DNA of 20,026 nt from Thermoplasmatota archaeon (GTDB taxonomy: Archaea; Thermoplasmatota; Penumbrarchaeia; Penumbrarchaeales; Penumbrarchaeaceae): positions 1 to 20,026 of the forward strand of contig CBDDUX010000005.1 of assembly GCA_965234725.1 (NCBI GenBank), read 5' to 3'. Position numbers and translations under genes: made by a program. Below, piece by piece: positions 206 through 16,806 of the stretch (positions are counted from its first letter, which is position 1; every line of letters begins with the position of its first letter). Below the pieces are notes generated by a model that saw nothing but the letters and a program-made list of their open reading frames with translations, was not told where the DNA came from and made no database searches.

Positions 206-2212
206 TCAGGACCTGGTCCTTAGATAGAGGAAGACCGCAGCACCAGCTAACCCGATAATACCCAGAACGACCCAGGTTATCGAGATTCCATCGATACCCC
301 CACTCCCATCGGAACTCGATCCAACCACATTGACATCGATGAAGGAATAAAGGGACGATCCCTGGGATCCAATGGTCCTAACCATTATCCTGTGCGTCCC
401 CTTACCAATGTCTATCTTGGTGGACCATGGGTTGAATGGCCCGGTTGTTTGTTCATCCATGAGGGTCCATTCACCCTCATCGACTCTGTATTCGATCCTT
501 TCGAAATCACCTTTCTTTGCCCATCCCAATCCAGACATTTCAATTGGTGAAGTGACGTTATAATAATCGAATGGTACGATATCTCCAATCTCGGATATGT
601 TGTTGATATGGGCTTGAAGGTCAACGGAGAAATCTTCCGGCGAGGTCACGGTTTGTGCCAGCCTTACTGCATTGAAAGCATCGACCACTCCATAACCGAA
701 TTGAGGTTCCCAAAAAGGATCCAGTTCTGGATAGAAGGCTGGATTTTTCTTTTCAGCGGTATATTTCAGGATCTCCTTGACAATGTTATTCTCTCCCTCG
801 AGCTCCGGATTTGCCTCAAGGATAAGTGCAACTACCCCTGCCACAAGAGGAGTGGCATATGAAGTTCCTGACCCTCTATTACCATACCCGTTGGATGAGG
901 CATCTCCCCTGATCCTCGCGGTGTCGGGTTGTAAATTTACGATATTTGTTCCCGGAGCAGAAACATCAGGTTTCAGCTCATTGTAAGGGTCATTATCACC
1001 ATTGTCGGTCCTTGGACCCACAGAAGAATAGAAAGCGATCACATCATCCTCATGTTCCAGAGTGTTCTGGTCATCTGTCGCACCAATGATGATCGCATCG
1101 GATGATGCGGACAGTCCATTGAAACCAGTGTTGTCTGGTCCATCATTTCCAGCGGCGTTGACCACGATCACACCATGCTCCACTGCGGCATCTAATAGTC
1201 TTGAATATTGATCGGTACCATCCGAGTCCGATCCGATATCCACTCCCCATGAGATCGAGAAGATATCAATACCCCTGTATTCATCTCCGCCGTTTATCCA
1301 TTGGGAATCGCTCATCTCCGTAGCCCACCTTATCCCTCTCAGGGTTCCATCCTTAATATGAGGATCAGAGACCGCACCCACCCAGAACTCTCCAGGTGCA
1401 TATCCTATCTGAGTCCCAATCCTTACATCGACCAACCTGGTATCAGGTGCTGTTCCCTGGTATTCACCCTCACTTCCTCCAGTACCAGTTGCAATGCCGG
1501 CACAAGTGGACCCATGGCCCTGGATGTCATCTGGATTGAATGAGCCATCCTGGGGGTAGAGGAATGGAAGATTGTCAGGTTTCGTCATATCCACACCTCC
1601 AAGGAACTTTCCACTCAGAGAGGGGTGTTCATCATCTATTCCAGTATCTATGACTGCCAGGGATACTCCTTTTCCAGTGAATCCTATCTCCCAGGCTGTA
1701 TTGGGAGAATACATATCCGATTGTTTAGCCCTGACAGTGGGTGTGGCTATGTCAGAAAATAGGATTGGTACTCCCAATGGTTCAATGAAGACCACACCAT
1801 CCATCTGACCGATCTCGTACAATCTATGGGATGGTACACTGCTTAATACAACCGCATCGATAAGATCAATTACGGCAGAAACAACGTAACCTCTCGACCC
1901 AAACTCTGTGAGTGTCTTATCAGAGATATCATCTGAAAAGGATACCGTGATCTCCAGGAGGATCTGGTCTTCCGGAGAAAGCTCAGCATATCGATCGATG
2001 ACATCAGAGATCCCGTTCCTATTTTGATCCAGAGAGGTCCTTTCCCACCATGGTAGTTCTGAGATCGGTCCTTCATTATTTCCTAAGGGTGACCAATGGT
2101 TCATTTTTGCCATTATCTGTGGTTTTTCGGTCTCGGCGGATAGGTCCATTGCACCTGCAACGGAGGTAAACAGCAATACTGCGGTCAGAATTATGATGGA
2201 TGTCTTCATCAT
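206..2212 (-). CDS. Secreted, C-terminally membrane-anchored S8 (subtilisin-like) serine peptidase
   Basis: N-terminal signal peptide and prodomain. Catalytic motifs VIDTG, HGSTCAG and SGTSYATP, plus oxyanion AAGNDG. Beta-rich C-terminal domain, then a Gly/Ser linker, TM helix and basic tail. GGAGG RBS upstream. Confidence 0.93.
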   Translation of the reverse strand: MMKTSIIILTAVLLFTSVAGAMDLSAETEKPQIMAKMNHWSPLGNNEGPISELPWWERTSLDQNRNGISDVIDRYAELSPEDQILLEITVSFSDDISDKTLTEFGSRGYVVSAVIDLIDAVVLSSVPSHRLYEIGQMDGVVFIEPLGVPILFSDIATPTVRAKQSDMYSPNTAWEIGFTGKGVSLAVIDTGIDDEHPSLSGKFLGGVDMTKPDNLPFLYPQDGSFNPDDIQGHGSTCAGIATGTGGSEGEYQGTAPDTRLVDVRIGTQIGYAPGEFWVGAVSDPHIKDGTLRGIRWATEMSDSQWINGGDEYRGIDIFSISWGVDIGSDSDGTDQYSRLLDAAVEHGVIVVNAAGNDGPDNTGFNGLSASSDAIIIGATDDQNTLEHEDDVIAFYSSVGPRTDNGDNDPYNELKPDVSAPGTNIVNLQPDTARIRGDASSNGYGNRGSGTSYATPLVAGVVALILEANPELEGENNIVKEILKYTAEKKNPAFYPELDPFWEPQFGYGVVDAFNAVRLAQTVTSPEDFSVDLQAHINNISEIGDIVPFDYYNVTSPIEMSGLGWAKKGDFERIEYRVDEGEWTLMDEQTTGPFNPWSTKIDIGKGTHRIMVRTIGSQGSSLYSFIDVNVVGSSSDGSGGIDGISITWVVLGIIGLAGAAVFLYLRTRS

Positions 2213-2303
2213 GGTTATATGGCCTCCTCTTAACTAAATATTGTTCCATTTTCGGTTATATGGTCATTTGAAAAAACAGATATAGATTATGGAAGAATAA
2301 ACC

Positions 2304-2394
2304 AAAAGAAGGAGAAAGACGGGGGGGAAGTGGGGGATTAGAGAGGAGAGAGAGGTGTGAGAGAATATACAATGGTTATATTCCCCCTCGTCTT
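2304..2394 (-). ncRNA. Candidate ~90-nt stem-closed small RNA with CU-rich loop
   Basis: 14-bp inverted repeat 2316-2329/2381-2394 (one mismatch) encloses a 51-nt loop that is largely polypurine on + and polypyrimidine on -. TATATATA at 2416-2423 lies about 25 nt upstream on -, and a U-run follows the stem. Confidence 0.3.
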
Positions 2395-2557
2395 ATTATA
2401 TATATATGTCTGCTGTATATATATGGTTAGACCCTAATTGTGTACAAATCTGATAATAATATTAACTATCAGTATATATTGGATTAAATAGATCATTAAT
2501 ATAAATTTAAGAAAAACACATCCCAGATGATTAAAGGCCAGACATACGAAAAATATT

Positions 2558-3007
2558 GAAGTGCTCCCGACGGAACCTTTGCCTTAAGAAGATGATCAAC
2601 GATGATCCTAAGGCAAAGGTCAGCTGAAAAACGGTTTCTATTAGAATATAATCATTTTTCAGCGTGTAAGATCGGTTATAGTAATGGTTTTCGGATTATT
2701 ATGTGATAGACGCAAGAAAATCATTACGGGAAAGGTGGCACTTCTTGTGATCTGGATAGAAGAGTATTTGAAAGAAGTGCTCCCGACGGAACCTTTTCAT
2801 CTGGGAAAGAACCTTCGAGAATTCAGATGAAAAGGTCAGCTGAAAAACGGTTTCTATTAGAATATAATCATTTTTCAGCGTGTAAGATCGGTTATAGTAA
2901 TGGTTTTCGGATTATTATGTGATAGACGCAAGAAAATCATTACGGGAATGGGGGCACTTCTTGTGATCTGGATAGAAGAGTATTAGAAAGAAGTGCTCCC
3001 GACGGAA
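2558..3007. repeat. tRNA-Glu 3'-end-anchored tandem array, period 216 bp, four palindromic cassettes per unit
   Basis: GAAGTGCTCCCGACGGAA occurs at 2558, 2774 and 2990. The two full units are identical except for 3 substitutions and a hypervariable 34-nt window inside the first palindrome. Confidence 0.95.
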
Positions 3008-3066
3008 TTTGAATCCGTGTCGCTGGCTCGAGAGGCCAGCATGATTGGCCGCTACACTACGGGAGC
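2994..3066 (-). tRNA. tRNA-Glu (CTC)
   Basis: Minus strand reads GCTCCCG-TA-GTGTAGCGGCCAATCAT-G-CTGGC CTCTCGA GCCAG-CGAC-ACGGA TTCAAAT TCCGT-CGGGAGC-A. Full cloverleaf; CCA not encoded. TATA-like TTATAAAG at about 3105-3112 on -. Confidence 0.96.
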
Positions 3067-3130
3067 ATTCCTTGGTCTGAGCAGCACCCGAGTATGAACA
3101 AATCCTTTATAATTGTTTCTTAGAACGGAC

Positions 3131-4810
3131 CTATTGCTTCATCTGGTTCTGGATCTTTGCCCAGCTATCCCTTAATGTTGCAGTTCTATTGATGACAAGC
3201 ATCTCATTCGTAGTATCCAGATCAATGGTGAAATATCCGGTCCTCTCGAACTGGAACCTTGTTCCGATCGCAAGGTCCTTCACAGCAGGTTCTACCTTGC
3301 AGTTCTTCAAGACCTTTATGGATTCCGGGTCAATATATGACCTCCAATCTCCCTCGGAGAGGGGGTCCTCAATAGTGAAAAGCTTGTCATAGAGTCTGAT
3401 CTCGGCATTGATCGAACTATTTGCTGAAACCCAGTGCAAAGTTCCCTTGATCCTTCTTCCATCGGGGGCGGACCCTCCTTTTGATTCCGGATCGATCCTG
3501 CAAACGAGTTCCCTGATCTCATCCCCTTCCTTGATCACATCCACACAAGTTGCAAGATAAGCATTTCTCAGCCTGATCTCACTTCCGGGTGACATTCTGA
3601 AGAATTTCTTGGGGGGATCCTCCATGAAATCATCCCGCTCGATGAACAGGGTTTTTGTGAATGGGACCCTTCGAGTTCCAGCTTCAGGTTTTTCAGGATT
3701 GTTGACCAGCTCCATTTCCTCGATCCTGTTCTCATCGTAGTTCTCGATGGTAACCTTAAGGGGGTCCAAAACTCCCATGAACCTATTTGCCGTTTTGTTC
3801 AGATATTCCCTTACGCAATGTTCGAGAAGCTCAAAGGCAATGTTGGAATTCACTTTGGCTATCCCGACCCTGGAACAGAAGTCCCTGATGGCTTCCGGTG
3901 GATAACCTCTTCTTCTCATTCCGGATAGAGTTGGCATCCTGGGATCGTCCCAACTTTTGACGAGTTTCTCCTCCACCAGTTCAAGGAGCTTTCTTTTTGA
4001 CATGACGGTATAAGTCATATTCAGCCTTGCGAATTCTATCTGCTGAGGATGATATACATCATCTAACTGGTCGATGAACCAATCATACAAAGGTCTGTGA
4101 TTCTCGAATTCCAGGGTGCAAAGTGAATGAGTGATCCTCTCGATAGAATCCTCCAACCCATGGGCCCAGTCGTACATGGGGTAAATACACCATCGGTCCC
4201 CTGTGTTGTGGTGGCTCTTGTGAAGGATCCTGTACATGACCGGGTCCCTCATGTTCATATTCGGATGTGACATGTCGGCTTTTGCCCTGAGGACCTTTTC
4301 CCCATCCGGAAATTCTCCAGCCTTCATCCTCTTGAAAAGATCGATGTTCTCTTCAATGGGCCTGTCCCTGAAGGGGCTGTTCTTTCCAGGTTTTGTTAAG
4401 GTTCCTCTGGTGGCACTTATCTCCTCTGCGGTTTGCTCATCCACATAGGCTTTTCCTTTCTCAACGAGTTCCATTGCCCAATCGTAAAGCTGGTCGAAAT
4501 AATCCGATGCAAAGAAAAGTCTATCTTCCCAATCGAATCCAAGCCATTTCACATCCTCTATGATGGACCTGACATACTCATCCTCTTCCTTCGCAGGATT
4601 CGTATCATCGAATCTCAGGTTGCATTTTCCCCCGTATTCTTCAGCAATACCGAAATTCAAACAGATCGATTTTGCATGTCCGATATGGAGATATCCATTG
4701 GGTTCGGGTGGGAACCTCGTATGCACCCTGCTTTCAAACTTTCCGTTGAGGTTGTGCTCGTCGATGATCTCCCTGATGAAATCCCTGCCTGATCGTTTTT
4801 CTTCTTCCAT
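3131..4810 (-). CDS. glnS: Glutaminyl-tRNA synthetase, bacterial type
   Basis: [22 protein letters not shown] (HIGH), MSKRK (KMSKS equivalent), [14 protein letters not shown] (Cys where GluRS has Arg), QIEFARL and C-terminal beta-barrel FQFER. ATG 4810 follows an AGGTG RBS; the ORF track starts at GTG 4819. Confidence 0.95.
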
Positions 4811-4880
4811 CGAGGACACCTTCTGAAAGTGTTATGGTATCTGATTCTACTACATAATGTTGTCATATTGAGGTCATCTG

Positions 4881-5331
4881 AAATCGCAAGTAATCAGGAA
4901 CAAAATTTTGATATGCCTATGCATCAAAGATGCCCACGTGGTTCTCAGTTCTCATCTGGAGTGATTATAAGACAATAATAATCGGGACTACTTTTTTAGA
5001 TTAATTATTGATTATAAAAAAAGTAGCCCCGACCAGATTCTTGAGTTTTCCAAATTAATGATACAATGATCAGCAAAACTCAACCATCGCCACAATCGAA
5101 GATTGTGTCTGGTTCTCATCTGGAATAATTAGAATAAAATTACAATCGGGACTACTTTTTTGGATTAATTATTGATTATGAAAAAAGTAGCCCCGACCAG
5201 ATTCGAACCATCGCCAAAATCAGAGATTTTGTCTGCGTGTGCATCAAAGATGCGCACGTGGTTCCCAGTCCGAATCTGGCCAGGGATATCCATATTTTGA
5301 AGAAAAGAATTGGTAGCCCCGACCAGATTCG
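4881..5331. repeat. tRNA-Gln 3'-end-anchored modular repeat array with nested palindromes
   Basis: GTAGCCCCGACCAGATTC occurs at 5023, 5187 and 5313. There is a 93-bp duplication 4948-5040/5112-5204 and a module 4920-4949/5240-5269. Each tRNA-end copy has an inverted partner 18-19 nt away. The left boundary is degenerate and approximate. Confidence 0.9.
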
Positions 5332-5386
5332 AACTGGTGGCGGAAGATCCAGAGTCTCCCATGCTAGACCGCTACACTACGGGGCT
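5311..5386 (-). tRNA. tRNA-Gln (CTG)
   Basis: Minus strand reads AGCCCCG-TA-GTGTAGCGGTCTAGCAT-G-GGAGA CTCTGGA TCTTC-CGCC-ACCAG TTCGAAT CTGGT-CGGGGCT-ACCA. A1:U72 pair typical of archaeal tRNA-Gln; CCA encoded. Confidence 0.96.
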
Positions 5387-5526
5387 GTGGGTTCGGGTGC
5401 GGGGATATTATCATCGATATATTATCCTTTCTGTCTGCTACCCAGAAGCCTAAAATATGCATGATTTATGCCTGGAATCCTCCGATATCCTTTTAAATGA
5501 AAAGCGATATGGAGCGGTCGATCCGT

Positions 5527-5751
5527 ATGGCTGAAGAGAAACAGGTCACGTTTCCCCATTCAATATCAAAGGGGATTTTCACCTTTATTATGGTAGCAGG
5601 TATCATTCTCTTCATTACATGGACAATAGCCATGTTCATCAAATCCGGAAGGATCCTGGATTGGGGAATATATGCTGTCAGCATCATATTGGTCCTCATG
5701 GGACTTTTCGGAAGGCTTGTCCATTCAACCGAAGGAAAGCAGGATTCCTGA
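5527..5751 (+). CDS. Small hypothetical membrane protein (2 TM)
   Basis: Two hydrophobic segments (GIFTFIMVAGIILFITWTIAMF; WGIYAVSIILVLMGLFG). Fills an intergenic gap. Start is ATG 5527 or upstream (5497). Confidence 0.7.
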   Translation: MAEEKQVTFPHSISKGIFTFIMVAGIILFITWTIAMFIKSGRILDWGIYAVSIILVLMGLFGRLVHSTEGKQDS

Positions 5752-5805
5752 AAGTAACCTCGGGTAAGATTTATTTTATCTGTCCACCTTTTAGTACAAG
5801 GTCTT

Positions 5806-8816: not shown

Positions 8817-9532
8817 TCTTCTTTCACCTTCTTGCTCAAAGGATCATTGAATCTTTGATCGGATATCATTCCATCCATAAGGTGGATCACCCTATCGGCG
8901 ACCTCCGTGATCGAAATATCATGCGAGACCACTATGAACGTGATCCCTTCTTTCTTGTTCAGATCTCTCATCAGATCCGCGATCTTCCTGCCTGTGACCC
9001 AATCCAGGTTACCTGTGGGTTCATCAGCAAGGACTATTCCTGGTCTCTTTACCAGTGCTCTGGCAATAGCGACCCTTTGTTGTTCCCCACCCGAAAGTTG
9101 GGATGGGAACATATTAGCCTTGTCTGGGATGCCCACAAGAGCAAGGGCCTCCTGGCTCCTTTTCATCATATCCTTCCTATCCCTGGCCATTTCCAGAGAA
9201 AGTGCGACATTCTCAACTGCTGTGAGGGAGGGAATGAGGTTGAAGAACTGGAATATCCATCCCACCTTTTCCCTTCTGTATTCGGAGAGTTTCCTTTCAC
9301 TTAAAGATCCAATATCCCTGCCATTTACCTTGATGGTCCCTTCTGAAGGTGAATCGATACCGCCCAAGCAGTTAAGGAGGGTCGTCTTCCCAGAACCGCT
9401 GGGTCCTAGGATCACTAGGAACTCCCCTTTTTTAACATTGAGGGAGATCCCCCTTAATGCTTTAACCTCAACCTCACCTAGTTTGAAGGTTCTCTTGATC
9501 CTATCTATTACCATGATATCATTTTCGTTCAT
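8813..9532 (-). CDS. ABC transporter ATP-binding protein (LolD/MacB-like)
   Basis: Walker A GPSGSGKT, Q-loop IFQFFNL, LSGGEQQR, Walker B VLADEPTGNLD, H-loop VSHD. Confidence 0.95.
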   Translation of the reverse strand: MNENDIMVIDRIKRTFKLGEVEVKALRGISLNVKKGEFLVILGPSGSGKTTLLNCLGGIDSPSEGTIKVNGRDIGSLSERKLSEYRREKVGWIFQFFNLIPSLTAVENVALSLEMARDRKDMMKRSQEALALVGIPDKANMFPSQLSGGEQQRVAIARALVKRPGIVLADEPTGNLDWVTGRKIADLMRDLNKKEGITFIVVSHDISITEVADRVIHLMDGMISDQRFNDPLSKKVKEE

Positions 9533-13442: not shown

Positions 13443-14591
13443 GTGAACCGAATGAATGTCCTGCATTCAACATGGTACGGTACCTTTGTGATCGATGTCA
13501 AAGATGGGTCGCAGGAAGTAATTGATAGTATACTACCAGAGAACGACACTATGTCCATTGCCAAGGATCTTTTTCAGATCACTAACGGAGAGATAATTGA
13601 GAGGGAAAGGAAGCTGGCAAACGAACATGAGATTACCGGTGTCGCAGACCCAAGGCTACTTCCTCTAACATCTAACAAAGTAGTGATACCACCGCGGGAA
13701 CTCAACCTTCCGGATCCTGCCTCCTTGGGTTTCTCGACATCCCTCCTTTCAGAGGCTACGATCCTCCTATCCGGGATGGCAGTAAATGACGGACCGGATG
13801 ATTCTACCATCATGTCCGCGGTAGGTGCCCTTACAGATATTGATTCCTCTTTGAATCTGATCACCGAAAGAATGAGGGAATGGTACTCCAAGTATTGGGA
13901 AGAAGCCTCCCCCCTTCTGGAAGACCTTGATGTCCTAGAAATGATCGGGGAGGATCCAGATCCCACAAGCCTCTTTGCAAGATTGGAGCGAAATGATCTT
14001 CCCCCTCCGAAACCTGATGCTCCCGACCTTCAGGGCATGTCAGCTCTTGCCAGGGCTGCACGGTCCCTATGGAAGTCAAGGGAGAGTATGGAGGCTTATC
14101 TTGAGATTGAGATGGCCCAGGTGGCACCCTGCCTTTCCGAGGTATCTGGACCCTTGATCGGAGCCAGGCTGATTCACAATGCGGGGGGTTTGAGAAGGCT
14201 GGCAAAGCTCCCCTCTTCCACCGTTCAGGTCCTTGGAGCCGAGAAGATGTTCTTCAAGTTCCTCAAGGAGGGAGGAAAACCTCCAAAACATGGTGTCCTT
14301 TTCCAGCATTCCTGGGTACATTCCCTGCCCGTTTCGAAAAGAGGGAAGATGGCAAGGGCACTGGCCAATGCTGCATCCATAGCATCCAGGATCGACTTCT
14401 ACGGATCAGGGGATGCAGGACCTCTTAAAACCAGATTGGAGAAGAGGAGGGAGGAGATATTGAGGTCCGAGGAGAGCAAGAGGGTCGGAGGGGGTAGACA
14501 ACCTCCTTTCAGAGAGGGTTGGTGGTCAGACAAACCCCTTCCAAATAGGAGTAGGGGAAGAAGGACCCATGGAAGGGGCAAGAGGAAATGA
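13443..14591 (+). CDS. nop5: Nop5/Nop56/Nop58 family C/D box RNP protein
   Basis: ERMREWY, APCLSEVSGPLIGARLI..AGGL.RLAKLPSSTVQVLGAEK, PPKHG.LFQH, RGKMARALA...RID, and a basic C-tail. The start may be ATG 13452. Confidence 0.9.
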   Translation: MNRMNVLHSTWYGTFVIDVKDGSQEVIDSILPENDTMSIAKDLFQITNGEIIERERKLANEHEITGVADPRLLPLTSNKVVIPPRELNLPDPASLGFSTSLLSEATILLSGMAVNDGPDDSTIMSAVGALTDIDSSLNLITERMREWYSKYWEEASPLLEDLDVLEMIGEDPDPTSLFARLERNDLPPPKPDAPDLQGMSALARAARSLWKSRESMEAYLEIEMAQVAPCLSEVSGPLIGARLIHNAGGLRRLAKLPSSTVQVLGAEKMFFKFLKEGGKPPKHGVLFQHSWVHSLPVSKRGKMARALANAASIASRIDFYGSGDAGPLKTRLEKRREEILRSEESKRVGGGRQPPFREGWWSDKPLPNRSRGRRTHGRGKRK

Positions 14592-14592
14592 T

Positions 14593-16806
14593 ATGAGTGG
14601 CGTTGAACTCCCGGAAGGGATGCATCCCAGGGTCCAGGAAGCATTGGAACTATGGGGAATAGATTCCCTTTATCCACCCCAGAAGGATGCAATGGGTCCG
14701 ATCGCGAGGGGAGAGAACCTTGTAACGGCAGTTCCAACAGCCGCTGGAAAATCTCTGATAGCATATATTGCGATCCTCAACCAGGTTCTCAGGAAGGGAA
14801 AGGCCTTATATGTCGTTCCATTAAAAGCACTCGCCAGTGAAAAATATCGAGAACTTAGGGAGCTATCAAAACTTGGGATCCGTGTTGGACTATCTTATGG
14901 AGACTACGATGATGATGACCGTAGGCTCGAATCCTATGATGTTGTTGTGGCGACTTCGGAAAAAGCTGACTCCCTGCTCAGACACAGGTCCAAATGGTTG
15001 ATGGACCTGAAAGTGATAGTCTCCGATGAGGTCCATCTCCTAAATGATACTGGGAGGGGTCCAACCCTTGAAGTGATCCTCACCAGGTTCAAACAATTGA
15101 ATCCCAAAGCCCAGCTGATCTGTCTGTCCGCCACGATAGGTAACTCTGATGAGATCGCAGGTTGGCTTGGAGCTACCCTGATCTCCTCCGATTTCAGACC
15201 GGTGGACCTCAGGGAAGGTGTCCTTAGTGAGGGTGGTATCACATTTTCCGATATGTCCTTCAGGGAGATCGGGTCAAGGACCGGTAATCCCCTATTCGAT
15301 GGGATCTTAGATGGTTTGAAGGATGGGGAAGGACAGGTCCTGGTCTTTGTTAACACCCGGAGGTCTTGTGAAAGTTCCGCAGTTGAGATGGCCAAACTAC
15401 TCAGGGATCATCTTTCACCCAGAGATCTATCAGAACTGAACGAGACCTCGAATCTCCTTGGACGGTCCGACGCTGTGATGGCCAAGAGGTTGATCAGGTC
15501 TGTAAAAGGAGGGGCCGCATTCCATCATGCGGGTCTCTCCAATGAACATCGTGGAGTGATCGAGACCTCTTTCAGAGAGAGGAAGATCAAGGTCCTCTTT
15601 GCAACCCCCACGCTTGCTGCAGGTATCAATCTTCCAGCACGCAGGGTTATTGTAAGGGACTGGACCCGGTTCGAAGCCTGGAATCCAAGGGCGCCGATCC
15701 CCATTCTGGAGATCAAGCAGATGTTCGGAAGGGCCGGAAGGCCAAGGTATGATCCTAATGGTGAGGCTTTCATCCTTGCCCGAAAACCGGAGGAGCAGGA
15801 TGTTCTGATGGAACGGTATGTGTGGGGGAAGCCCGAGGAGGTGATCTCCAAACTTGGTTCCAGACCTGCACTTAGAACCCATCTTCTTTCATCGTTCGCA
15901 ACCAACTATGTCAGGGACCTTGACGAGATGTGGGAATTTATCAGGTCCACTTTCTATGCGTACCAGAATGACACATGGAAGATCTCAGGTGATGTGGAGG
16001 ACATTCTGGATTTTCTCAAGGAAGAGGGTTTCCTCGAGGAAATTGATGGAAAGATGTCGGCAACTGATTTTGGGAAGAGAGTGGCAAGGCTTTACATCGA
16101 CCCCCTTTCAGCAGTTGTCCTCAGGGATGCAGTGAAGGCTGACCCCAAGGAACTCACAACATTTTCCATCCTCCAGGCGATCTCTCTTACACCGGATATG
16201 AAACCACTCTTCGTCAGGGGAAAGGACCACGATCAGGTAACAGAGTTCATGTATTCCAGGGAGGAGCAGCTGCTTGCACCGATACCTGAAGAACAGGTGG
16301 ATTATGATTGGTACCTCAATTCAGTGAAAACGGCTATGTTCCTCATGGAATGGATAGGTGAGAACGAAGGCTCCATCGAAGCTTCCGAAGAAAGGATAGA
16401 ATCATTGTACAATCTTGGACCGGGAGACATCCATTCCAGAGTTGAGAATGCCGTTTGGATGCTCTATGCCATGAGGGAGCTTTCCAGATTGTTCGGTTCA
16501 GGTAAGGCGAAGATGATCGATAAAGTGTCATTGAGGGTGGAAAAAGGGATCAGAGAGGAGCTGATCCCGTTGATCGCCTTGAAGGGGATTGGACGTGTGA
16601 GGGCCAGGAGGTTGTTCTCATCAGGATTGAAGACGACAGACGATCTGAGAAAGGCCACAGTTGACAGAATCGCCTCCATTGCAGGGATCGGCAGACAGAT
16701 AGCCTTCAAAGTAAAGAATGAATTGAGCTCTGACGGTGAGATCATTGAGGAGGAGGATGACGGGTTGAACGGACCAAAACAATCCCTTCTCTTTGATTTC
16801 AACTGA
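14593..16806 (+). CDS. hel308: Ski2-like SF2 DNA helicase Hel308/Hjm
   Basis: LYPPQ, PTAAGKS, DEVH, LSAT, TPTLAAGINLP, QMFGRAGRP, HhH domain with GRVRAR, and C-terminal QSLLFDF. ATG 14593 lies just after the nop5 stop. Confidence 0.94.
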   Translation: MSGVELPEGMHPRVQEALELWGIDSLYPPQKDAMGPIARGENLVTAVPTAAGKSLIAYIAILNQVLRKGKALYVVPLKALASEKYRELRELSKLGIRVGLSYGDYDDDDRRLESYDVVVATSEKADSLLRHRSKWLMDLKVIVSDEVHLLNDTGRGPTLEVILTRFKQLNPKAQLICLSATIGNSDEIAGWLGATLISSDFRPVDLREGVLSEGGITFSDMSFREIGSRTGNPLFDGILDGLKDGEGQVLVFVNTRRSCESSAVEMAKLLRDHLSPRDLSELNETSNLLGRSDAVMAKRLIRSVKGGAAFHHAGLSNEHRGVIETSFRERKIKVLFATPTLAAGINLPARRVIVRDWTRFEAWNPRAPIPILEIKQMFGRAGRPRYDPNGEAFILARKPEEQDVLMERYVWGKPEEVISKLGSRPALRTHLLSSFATNYVRDLDEMWEFIRSTFYAYQNDTWKISGDVEDILDFLKEEGFLEEIDGKMSATDFGKRVARLYIDPLSAVVLRDAVKADPKELTTFSILQAISLTPDMKPLFVRGKDHDQVTEFMYSREEQLLAPIPEEQVDYDWYLNSVKTAMFLMEWIGENEGSIEASEERIESLYNLGPGDIHSRVENAVWMLYAMRELSRLFGSGKAKMIDKVSLRVEKGIREELIPLIALKGIGRVRARRLFSSGLKTTDDLRKATVDRIASIAGIGRQIAFKVKNELSSDGEIIEEEDDGLNGPKQSLLFDFN

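Follow-up and report, generated by a model that had tools for sequence, protein, structure and literature searches.

Archaea are described as forming Gln-tRNA without a glutaminyl-tRNA synthetase (GlnRS). In the passages of three reviews of 2021-2022 that bear on the question (PMC9499178, PMC8762117, PMC8007984), all or almost all known archaea lack the enzyme, Gln-tRNA is always made indirectly, and the amidotransferase GatDE is specific for Gln; the relevant part of a 2016 survey likewise gives no GlnRS for the archaeal genomes covered (PMC5388404). A passing remark in a 2022 essay speaks of a transfer of GlnRS to Archaea and Bacteria (PMC8879553), and one portion of a 2024 preprint places GlnRS beside cox genes in Heimdallarchaeia. 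No paper describing GlnRS in Thermoplasmatota was found among the texts searched, supplements excluded; Di Giulio 2020 (Biosystems 196:104174), which deals with how GlnRS is distributed phylogenetically, may list archaeal cases. The subject of this study is a bacterial-type GlnRS gene, glnS, on a 20,026-bp contig of a Thermoplasmatota archaeon (CBDDUX010000005.1 of assembly GCA_965234725.1, forward strand; the whole contig is referred to here as the window). A preliminary description of this DNA had reported an intact glnS co-oriented between tRNA-Gln(CTG) and tRNA-Glu(CTC) on a contig with nop5 and hel308, and all of these were found, as was the GlnRS motif that it had named. Its premise that characterised archaea are without GlnRS is what the review passages state. 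The interpretation considered very probable here is that a bacterial GlnRS was acquired once, has been inherited as a chromosomal gene in the family to which this genome belongs (family f1) and coexists there with GatDE, and that the replacement of GatDE was completed in other lineages of the phylum.

The gene occupies positions 3131-4810 of the minus strand and is predicted from its sequence to encode a functional bacterial-type GlnRS of 559 amino acids if translation begins with the ATG at 4810. The uninterrupted frame is longer, 3131-4819 (562 amino acids counted from the GTG at 4819, the numbering used for residues here), and the shorter coding sequence was taken because the N-termini of relatives align with the ATG at 4810; a GGTG stands 8 nt before this ATG. 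The protein covers positions 1-524 of the 524 in the glnS equivalog profile TIGR00440 with 724.9 bits (cut-off 425.8); the archaeal profile for gltX, TIGR00463, gives 353.1 bits, under its cut-off of 401.75, and the bacterial gltX profile gives 75.9 bits. Three domains were found (PF00749 at residues 32-341, PF03950 at 344-443 and PF20974 at 460-533), which are the catalytic Rossmann domain and the two beta-barrel anticodon-binding domains of the family formed by GlnRS and glutamyl-tRNA synthetase (GluRS). Of the class I signature motifs, HIGH stands at residue 45 and VMSKR, which we take to be the GlnRS form of KMSKS, at residue 272.

Among solved structures the best match is E. coli GlnRS in its D235N mutant form (1qrs; 685.9 bits, query 11-556 on chain 7-551), followed by the Deinococcus (511.6 bits), human (454.7) and yeast (420.5) enzymes, with GluRS structures at 256 bits or less. 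The archaeal protein thus has the three-domain layout, the end-to-end alignment, the HIGH and VMSKR motifs and the position within the bacterial GlnRS radiation in common with E. coli GlnS (1gtr, 1qrs). It differs from it in having an archaeal host, in a gene flanked by tRNA genes, and in a tRNA-Gln with A1-U72, C3-G70 and A73. The identity set of E. coli tRNA-Gln is U1-A72, G3-C70 and G73. At the residue equivalent to E. coli 235, 30 of the 32 archaeal rows of the alignment have Asn, which was considered as an adaptation to C3-G70; this was rejected, as 22 of 96 bacterial rows share it. The best-scoring NCBIfam model is that of the Deinococcus-type GlnRS/YqeY fusion (NF011291, 2hz7; 828.2 bits, cut-off 681). 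However, the match covers only positions 6-562 of the 769 in the profile and stops where the protein itself does, at residue 562, so that the YqeY/GatB-like C-terminal domain is not present, and the Deinococcus chain scores under the E. coli chain. NCBI annotates the archaeal relatives as GlnRS/YqeY fusions, a name that is misleading for them, and the practical point is that public annotation labels these proteins wrongly.

The indirect route of archaea, in which a non-discriminating GluRS misacylates the tRNA and GatDE then amidates the amino acid on it, leads to the same end product, Gln-tRNA-Gln, by chemistry unrelated to that of GlnRS, and all three of its genes are in this genome. A check of the gat genes and of the GluRS type, proposed in the preliminary description, showed an archaeal-type GluRS (554.2 bits) as a separate gene on contig C109, GatD (514.1 bits) and GatE (443.9 bits), and none of the three genes has an internal stop; GatA had no match in the genome, and the GatB model matched gatE alone, weakly. 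In comparison with a genome of the same genus (G190), dN/dS is 0.079 for glnS (dN 0.048, dS 0.604) and 0.117 for gatE (dS 0.418). Since GluRS and GatDE are intact and both glnS and gatE are under purifying selection, both routes are maintained and transamidation has not been replaced in this genome, contrary to one suggestion of the earlier account that holds only for other lineages of the phylum. Two tRNA-Gln genes were found, one with CTG next to glnS, which is the sole tRNA-Gln(CTG) found in the genome, and one with TTG on contig C77, and both have A1-U72 and A73. In each of two genomes of the same genus a single contig carries both glnS and gatE, at a distance of about 33 kb (C17 of G190, 353,290 bases, and C1 of G119, 232,820 bases). 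As a separate observation, G119 has a second GatE-like gene (C47:2578-4482, L160) that scores 457.3 bits with the gatE model and is 30% identical to the orthologous GatE.

A described case of such coexistence is bacterial. The GatCAB of bacteria of the Deinococcus, Thermus and Bdellovibrio type serves the formation of Asn-tRNA-Asn. These three genera hold GlnRS and an amidotransferase in one genome, as stated in the pertinent passage of PMC4206432. GatDE, unlike the bacterial GatCAB, is specific for Gln, and therefore the redundancy with GlnRS in the archaeon is real.

The spread of GlnRS was surveyed in 401 genomes sampled evenly from the phylum, all of them metagenome-assembled genomes (MAGs) in which related genomes are not independent counts. 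A match over the TIGR00440 cut-off was found in 74 of them, and with a partial copy in G158 (376.7 bits over 219 profile positions) the number of GlnRS-positive genomes is 75; a match in G210 was under the cut-off, was taken for GluRS and is not counted. In the protein database at least 120 clusters have 70-92% identity to the query. Named members among the clusters listed are MAGs of Thermoplasmatota, Thermoplasmata, Thermoplasmatales and Methanomassiliicoccales, and two named relatives are on contigs of 3.2 and 4.2 Mb (a Methanomassiliicoccales and a Thermoplasmata archaeon MAG).

All 51 archaeal rows formed one clade in a FastTree phylogeny of 181 rows (support 99, starred), and the same was true for the 32 archaeal rows in an IQ-TREE phylogeny (quick search, LG+G4) of 133 rows that included 79 named bacterial ones (SH-aLRT 97, starred). 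With eukaryote-type sequences as the root, this clade branches from within the bacterial GlnRS, and the copies from f1 group with one another in the GlnRS trees. The horizontal gain of a bacterial-type GlnRS proposed earlier is borne out by this placement, and the possibility raised alongside it, that the protein might group with archaeal GluRS, has fallen away, as the protein is nested in bacterial GlnRS and the GluRS of the genome is a different gene. The sister group is a mixture of Actinomycetota, Methylomirabilota, Verrucomicrobiota and Planctomycetota with a support of only 86, and for this reason no donor is named; homologues of one sister representative are from Euzebya, Acidimicrobiia and Sporichthya. 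In a library of representatives at 50% identity the best ones were about 55% identical to the query, too distant for close relations, and a search of genome contigs for related loci returned bacterial loci alone (58-68% identity) and no archaeal ones. The sequences point to a single old transfer from Bacteria as the simplest reading.

The association of glnS with tRNA genes extends well beyond the window. Among 30 glnS loci taken from across the phylum with flanks of at most 1.5 kb, 24 have a tRNA-Gln or tRNA-Glu gene in the flank; 14 of the 24 show the order tRNA-Gln(CTG)-glnS-tRNA-Gln(TTG), and contig ends truncate some of the 6 that have no flanking tRNA. In family f1 the order tRNA-Gln(CTG)-glnS-tRNA-Glu(CTC) was found in 7 of 7 loci (the window, G119, G190, G065, G019, G094 and G039). 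It is part of a longer conserved order of S8 peptidase, tRNA-Glu, glnS, tRNA-Gln, orf84, aldolase and FtsX that is kept across six f1 genera, with protein identities of glnS of 72-92% within the family. The synteny in related MAGs that the preliminary description had asked about is therefore conserved.

In family f21 the tRNA-Gln genes that adjoin glnS have G73 in 28 of 29 parsed cases, and A73 was found in 6 of 6 GlnRS-negative f21 genomes, in which the CTG and TTG genes stand solitary at separate sites. Two GlnRS-positive f21 genomes, G375 (L133/L136) and G321 (L132/L137/L140), keep additional A73 tRNA-Gln genes away from glnS. In the closed, GatDE-less genome G396 (L134/L139) an A73 tRNA-Gln(CTG) at C1:382533 looks decayed, its T stem being broken and its acceptor stem mismatched on inspection by eye. 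A pattern scan of the 401 genomes detected G73 tRNA-Gln in 58, of which 42 are GlnRS-positive and 16 GlnRS-negative, and G73 as a mark of GlnRS-bearing genomes was thus partly rejected. Twelve of these 16 belong to three families without any GlnRS (f41, f42 and f36) and have GatE, which means that the A73 stated for archaeal tRNA-Gln in the reviews is not universal. All f1 tRNA-Gln genes that were read have A73, including those of this genome, and the G73 scan gave 0 of 23 other f1 genomes. Four GlnRS-positive genomes that lack GatE (G015, G142, G170 and G077) have A73 on the tRNA-Gln(CTG) adjacent to glnS, and because such genomes exist the archaeal GlnRS clade would be expected to accept A73. 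The split between G73 and A73 in f21 is a lead and not a rule, and a tree of tRNA-Gln(CTG) with 71 columns, in which no branch was starred, offers a hint only.

GatE was found in 365 of the 401 genomes; the negative set consists of 20 genomes listed as negative and 16 missing from the positive list, the listings having been crossed by hand. Among the 75 GlnRS-positive genomes GatE was found in 46 and not found in 29, and among the 326 GlnRS-negative genomes it was found in 319 and not found in 7. Four of these 7 belong to family f21, in which the glnS block occurs often, and three of the four carry a G73 tRNA-Gln of the block type, so their glnS may be simply unassembled. GatD did not exceed its cut-off in any of 5 GatE-lacking GlnRS-positive genomes tested. 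The two closed genomes on single contigs, G324 and G396, are without GatD and GatE except for C-terminal gatD fragments of 58 bits (C1:2113069-2113290 in G324, with one TGA and two TAA inside, and C1:536851-537003 in G396), which are likely pseudogene relics. GlnRS did replace transamidation in these other lineages of the phylum, and the 29 sampled genomes that have a member of the clade without GatE argue that this clade is able to sustain the full supply on its own. A further genome, G146, of the same class as the genome studied here (a single contig of 3.6 Mb, rated 78% complete), had neither a GlnRS match at E <= 1e-100 nor a GatE match at E <= 1e-40.

The remainder of the contig is ordinary archaeal chromosome. 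On the minus strand tRNA-Gln(CTG) at 5311-5386 (ARAGORN; Rfam tRNA, 54.5 bits; A1-U72, discriminator A73) is followed by a spacer of 490 nt, the glnS frame, a spacer of 64 nt and tRNA-Glu(CTC) at 2993-3066 (ARAGORN; Rfam tRNA, 60.4 bits). The CCA end is encoded in the tRNA-Gln(CTG) gene next to glnS, both in the window (5311-5313) and at three other parsed f1 loci (L021, L025 and L027), unlike in the tRNA-Glu(CTC) beside glnS, which has no encoded CCA. An Rfam scan of 2200-5800 passed the two tRNAs alone, with C/D-box and miRNA matches far under threshold. Nop5 (Nop domain, 152.7 bits) and a Hel308-type helicase with archaeal helicase domain 4 are encoded at 13443-16806. The nearest named relatives of the Nop5 protein, at 46-55% identity, are all Thermoplasmatota MAGs, and weaker named matches include Euryarchaeota, Thermoprotei, Methanomassiliicoccales and Thermoplasmatales MAGs. 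Other genes on the contig encode an S8 peptidase, a class II aldolase, ABC/FtsX transporters, TetR and PadR regulators, a presenilin-like protease and tRNA-Val.

Both tRNA genes of the locus are accompanied by repeats of their own 3' ends, all on the minus strand. The 22-nt end of tRNA-Gln, present in the gene itself at 5313, recurs in the spacer between tRNA-Gln and glnS at 5187-5208 (100% identical) and at 5023-5044 (82%). These copies belong to two 93-nt units (4948-5040 and 5112-5204) that are 90% alike and spaced by 164 nt, and each unit terminates in a tRNA-Gln 3' fragment able to pair with a downstream complement in hairpins recognised by eye. On the other side, two tandem units of 216 nt with four hairpins each (2558-2773 and 2774-2989) lie in the region 2558-3007, bounded by three copies of the 18-nt end of tRNA-Glu at 2558, 2774 and 2990 (216-nt spacing); in a related strain from another study there is one unit fewer, with the joint at 2676->2892. 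The tandem repeat finder gives the two units as 98% alike over the aligned part, and one 44-nt hairpin is wholly different between them. Further copies of this family, which range from 214 to 234 nt, are at C38:77433-77663, C28:5459-5688, C12 at about 8900-9190 and C20:24643-24859. Direct repeats bound each copy examined, and these repeats are the tRNA-Glu 3' end on the window contig, the 3' end of tRNA Ala or Arg(GCG) on C38, C28 and C20 (15 of 15 nt each) and Ala-type by pattern on C12. Four hairpins are common to five copies, and 27 of their 51 pairs are changed on both sides with the pairing kept. Some copies are kilobases away from any matching tRNA gene, and similar partial tRNA-end repeats are present in genomes of the same family.

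The elements had no Rfam match in the window, and no integrase was found among 7 large open reading frames scanned on C28 and C38. Their appearance is that of small non-autonomous elements flanked by att sites, or of remnants of such elements. Integrative elements that target tRNA genes, and their integrase-less remnants, are generally known to have direct repeats of tRNA 3' ends, tandem units and copy numbers that vary among strains, as is the case here. The units differ from them in their short length, in the co-varying hairpins, in the lack of an integrase found nearby and in the copies that are distant from tRNA genes.

One concern with a finding of this kind is the fact that the window is an entire contig (C5) from a MAG that comprises 3.54 Mb on 114 contigs, with a completeness of 97.65% and a contamination of 2.54%, so that its membership of the genome depends on the binning and on the supporting evidence from this analysis. 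The repeats that flank the gene and the 685.9-bit match to E. coli GlnRS would also fit a mis-binned or chimeric contig with a glnS from a bacterium of the same sample, and chimeric assembly at the repeat arrays had been named in advance as a ground on which the finding could fall. However, nop5, hel308 and archaeal-type tRNAs are on the same contig. A Logan contig of run X1, which is possibly the source sample, covers 3037-5131 with 0 differences, and the read depth is flat at about 2355 and about doubled over the repeats only. Contigs from a second study, of a related strain that is mostly 90-95% alike, bridge both gene junctions (2985-3557, 3041-4053, 4617-4968 and 4682-4997); the four runs compared are all labelled marine sediment metagenome, and among the runs listed for the stretch there was none from RNA. 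In relatives glnS lies on the long contigs with gatE and on the archaeal-named contigs of 3.2 and 4.2 Mb. This explanation is refuted as far as the contigs show, and is given next to no chance. A different explanation starts from the repeats, which the preliminary description had taken for att scars of an integration at a tRNA 3' end that brought in glnS as recent cargo. The repeats are real, and exact copies of 18-22 nt flank both tRNA genes. Moreover, glnS adjoins tRNA-Gln(CTG) in many families, its presence is variable within family f1 and genus g2, and GlnRS-positive f21 genomes add the tRNA-Gln(CTG)-glnS-tRNA-Gln(TTG) block to other tRNA-Gln genes of the dispersed, solitary kind seen in their GlnRS-negative relatives. 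As scars of the insertion of glnS the repeats do not hold up, since no pair of them brackets the gene: the partial tRNA-Gln copies lie between tRNA-Gln and glnS and the partial tRNA-Glu copies beyond tRNA-Glu. No integrase family matched among the 17 window open reading frames scanned against Pfam, and the GC content over glnS (0.45-0.48) resembles that of the genome (0.454). The synteny over six f1 genera with identities down to 72% and the clustering of the f1 copies do not fit a recent arrival, and repeat units that are 90% alike are far younger than the spread of the gene. Recent cargo is accordingly quite unlikely, and the elements are considered to postdate the gain of glnS and to have nothing to do with it. 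The gene itself may have been inserted beside tRNA-Gln(CTG) in the distant past, because glnS adjoins this tRNA gene across families. Neither a chimeric assembly nor a recent insertion accounts for the glnS gene of the window.

It could also be that the gene is a GlnRS homologue kept for a job other than the general supply of Gln-tRNA-Gln, such as charging the adjacent CUG isoacceptor only, a conditional role or, as a relaxed enzyme, a regulatory or moonlighting one, with GatDE as the main route. The intact and constrained GatDE and GluRS genes and the absence of glnS from 10 of 23 other f1 genomes are in line with this, as is the physical tie of the gene to tRNA-Gln(CTG) at 7 of 7 f1 loci. 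The full-length equivalog match, the catalytic motifs and the strong purifying selection speak for an ordinary synthetase instead, and members of the same clade occur without GatE in the 29 sampled genomes mentioned above. A separate job of this sort is judged unlikely. Several observations nevertheless weigh against the interpretation preferred here, namely a once-acquired GlnRS that is inherited as a chromosomal gene and works beside GatDE. The same review passages (PMC9499178, PMC8762117, PMC8007984) state that archaeal tRNA-Gln, with A73 and A1-U72, is not recognised by bacterial or eukaryotic GlnRS. No archaeal signature residue that would explain an altered tRNA recognition was found, as in zero alignment columns is a residue shared by at least 90% of the archaeal rows and by at most 10% of the bacterial ones. 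The presence of GlnRS is patchy within family f1 (13 of 23 other genomes carry it), and G053 has a tRNA-Gln(CTG) that is 97% identical in a different neighbourhood with no glnS within 1.5 kb, so that glnS is dispensable in close relatives. The full redundancy of GlnRS and GatDE within one cell also counts against it. Lastly, all genomes are MAGs, whose completeness limits what can be read from absences and whose relatedness means that counts are not independent.

The model that results for this once-acquired GlnRS is as follows. An ancestor within the Thermoplasmatota would have acquired glnS from a bacterium, once, and in family f1 the gene would then have been inherited as a chromosomal gene adjoining tRNA-Gln(CTG). 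In the organism studied here GlnRS most likely charges both archaeal-type tRNA-Gln (A1-U72, A73) directly with glutamine, where activity on A73 is suggested by the GatE-lacking relatives. The ancestral route by non-discriminating GluRS and GatDE would have been retained alongside, probably for the reason that GluRS still produces Glu-tRNA-Gln that requires conversion. This genome would thus stand at the stage of coexistence, within a replacement of one pathway by another that has run to its end elsewhere in the phylum with the loss of GatDE. A more specific version, which is tentative and has slightly less than even chances in our estimate, is that of a single capture as a tRNA-Gln(CTG)-glnS-tRNA block, with the phylum caught at every stage of the replacement of GatDE: coexistence, parallel sets of G73 and A73 tRNA-Gln in one family, and a loss of GatDE that has left gatD relics and an A73 tRNA-Gln in decay.

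As a protein this GlnRS is an ordinary representative of its known family, and the interest of the finding is in where GlnRS occurs and in the visible stages of replacement. The textbook rule that archaea are without GlnRS and that archaeal tRNA-Gln is unusable by it underpins arguments on the evolution of the glutamine codons and of the enzymes for them. About one fifth of the sampled species in one archaeal phylum break this rule, and about 7% of the genomes (29 of 401) appear to be without GatDE. If true and undescribed, the finding would overturn the rule and would provide a natural GlnRS that accepts archaeal-type tRNA-Gln. The phylum would also offer a natural series for how an essential decoding pathway gets swapped without killing the cell, and it allows asking which tRNA features, such as A73 or G73, let GlnRS and the GluRS/GatDE route share or divide the tRNA-Gln pool.

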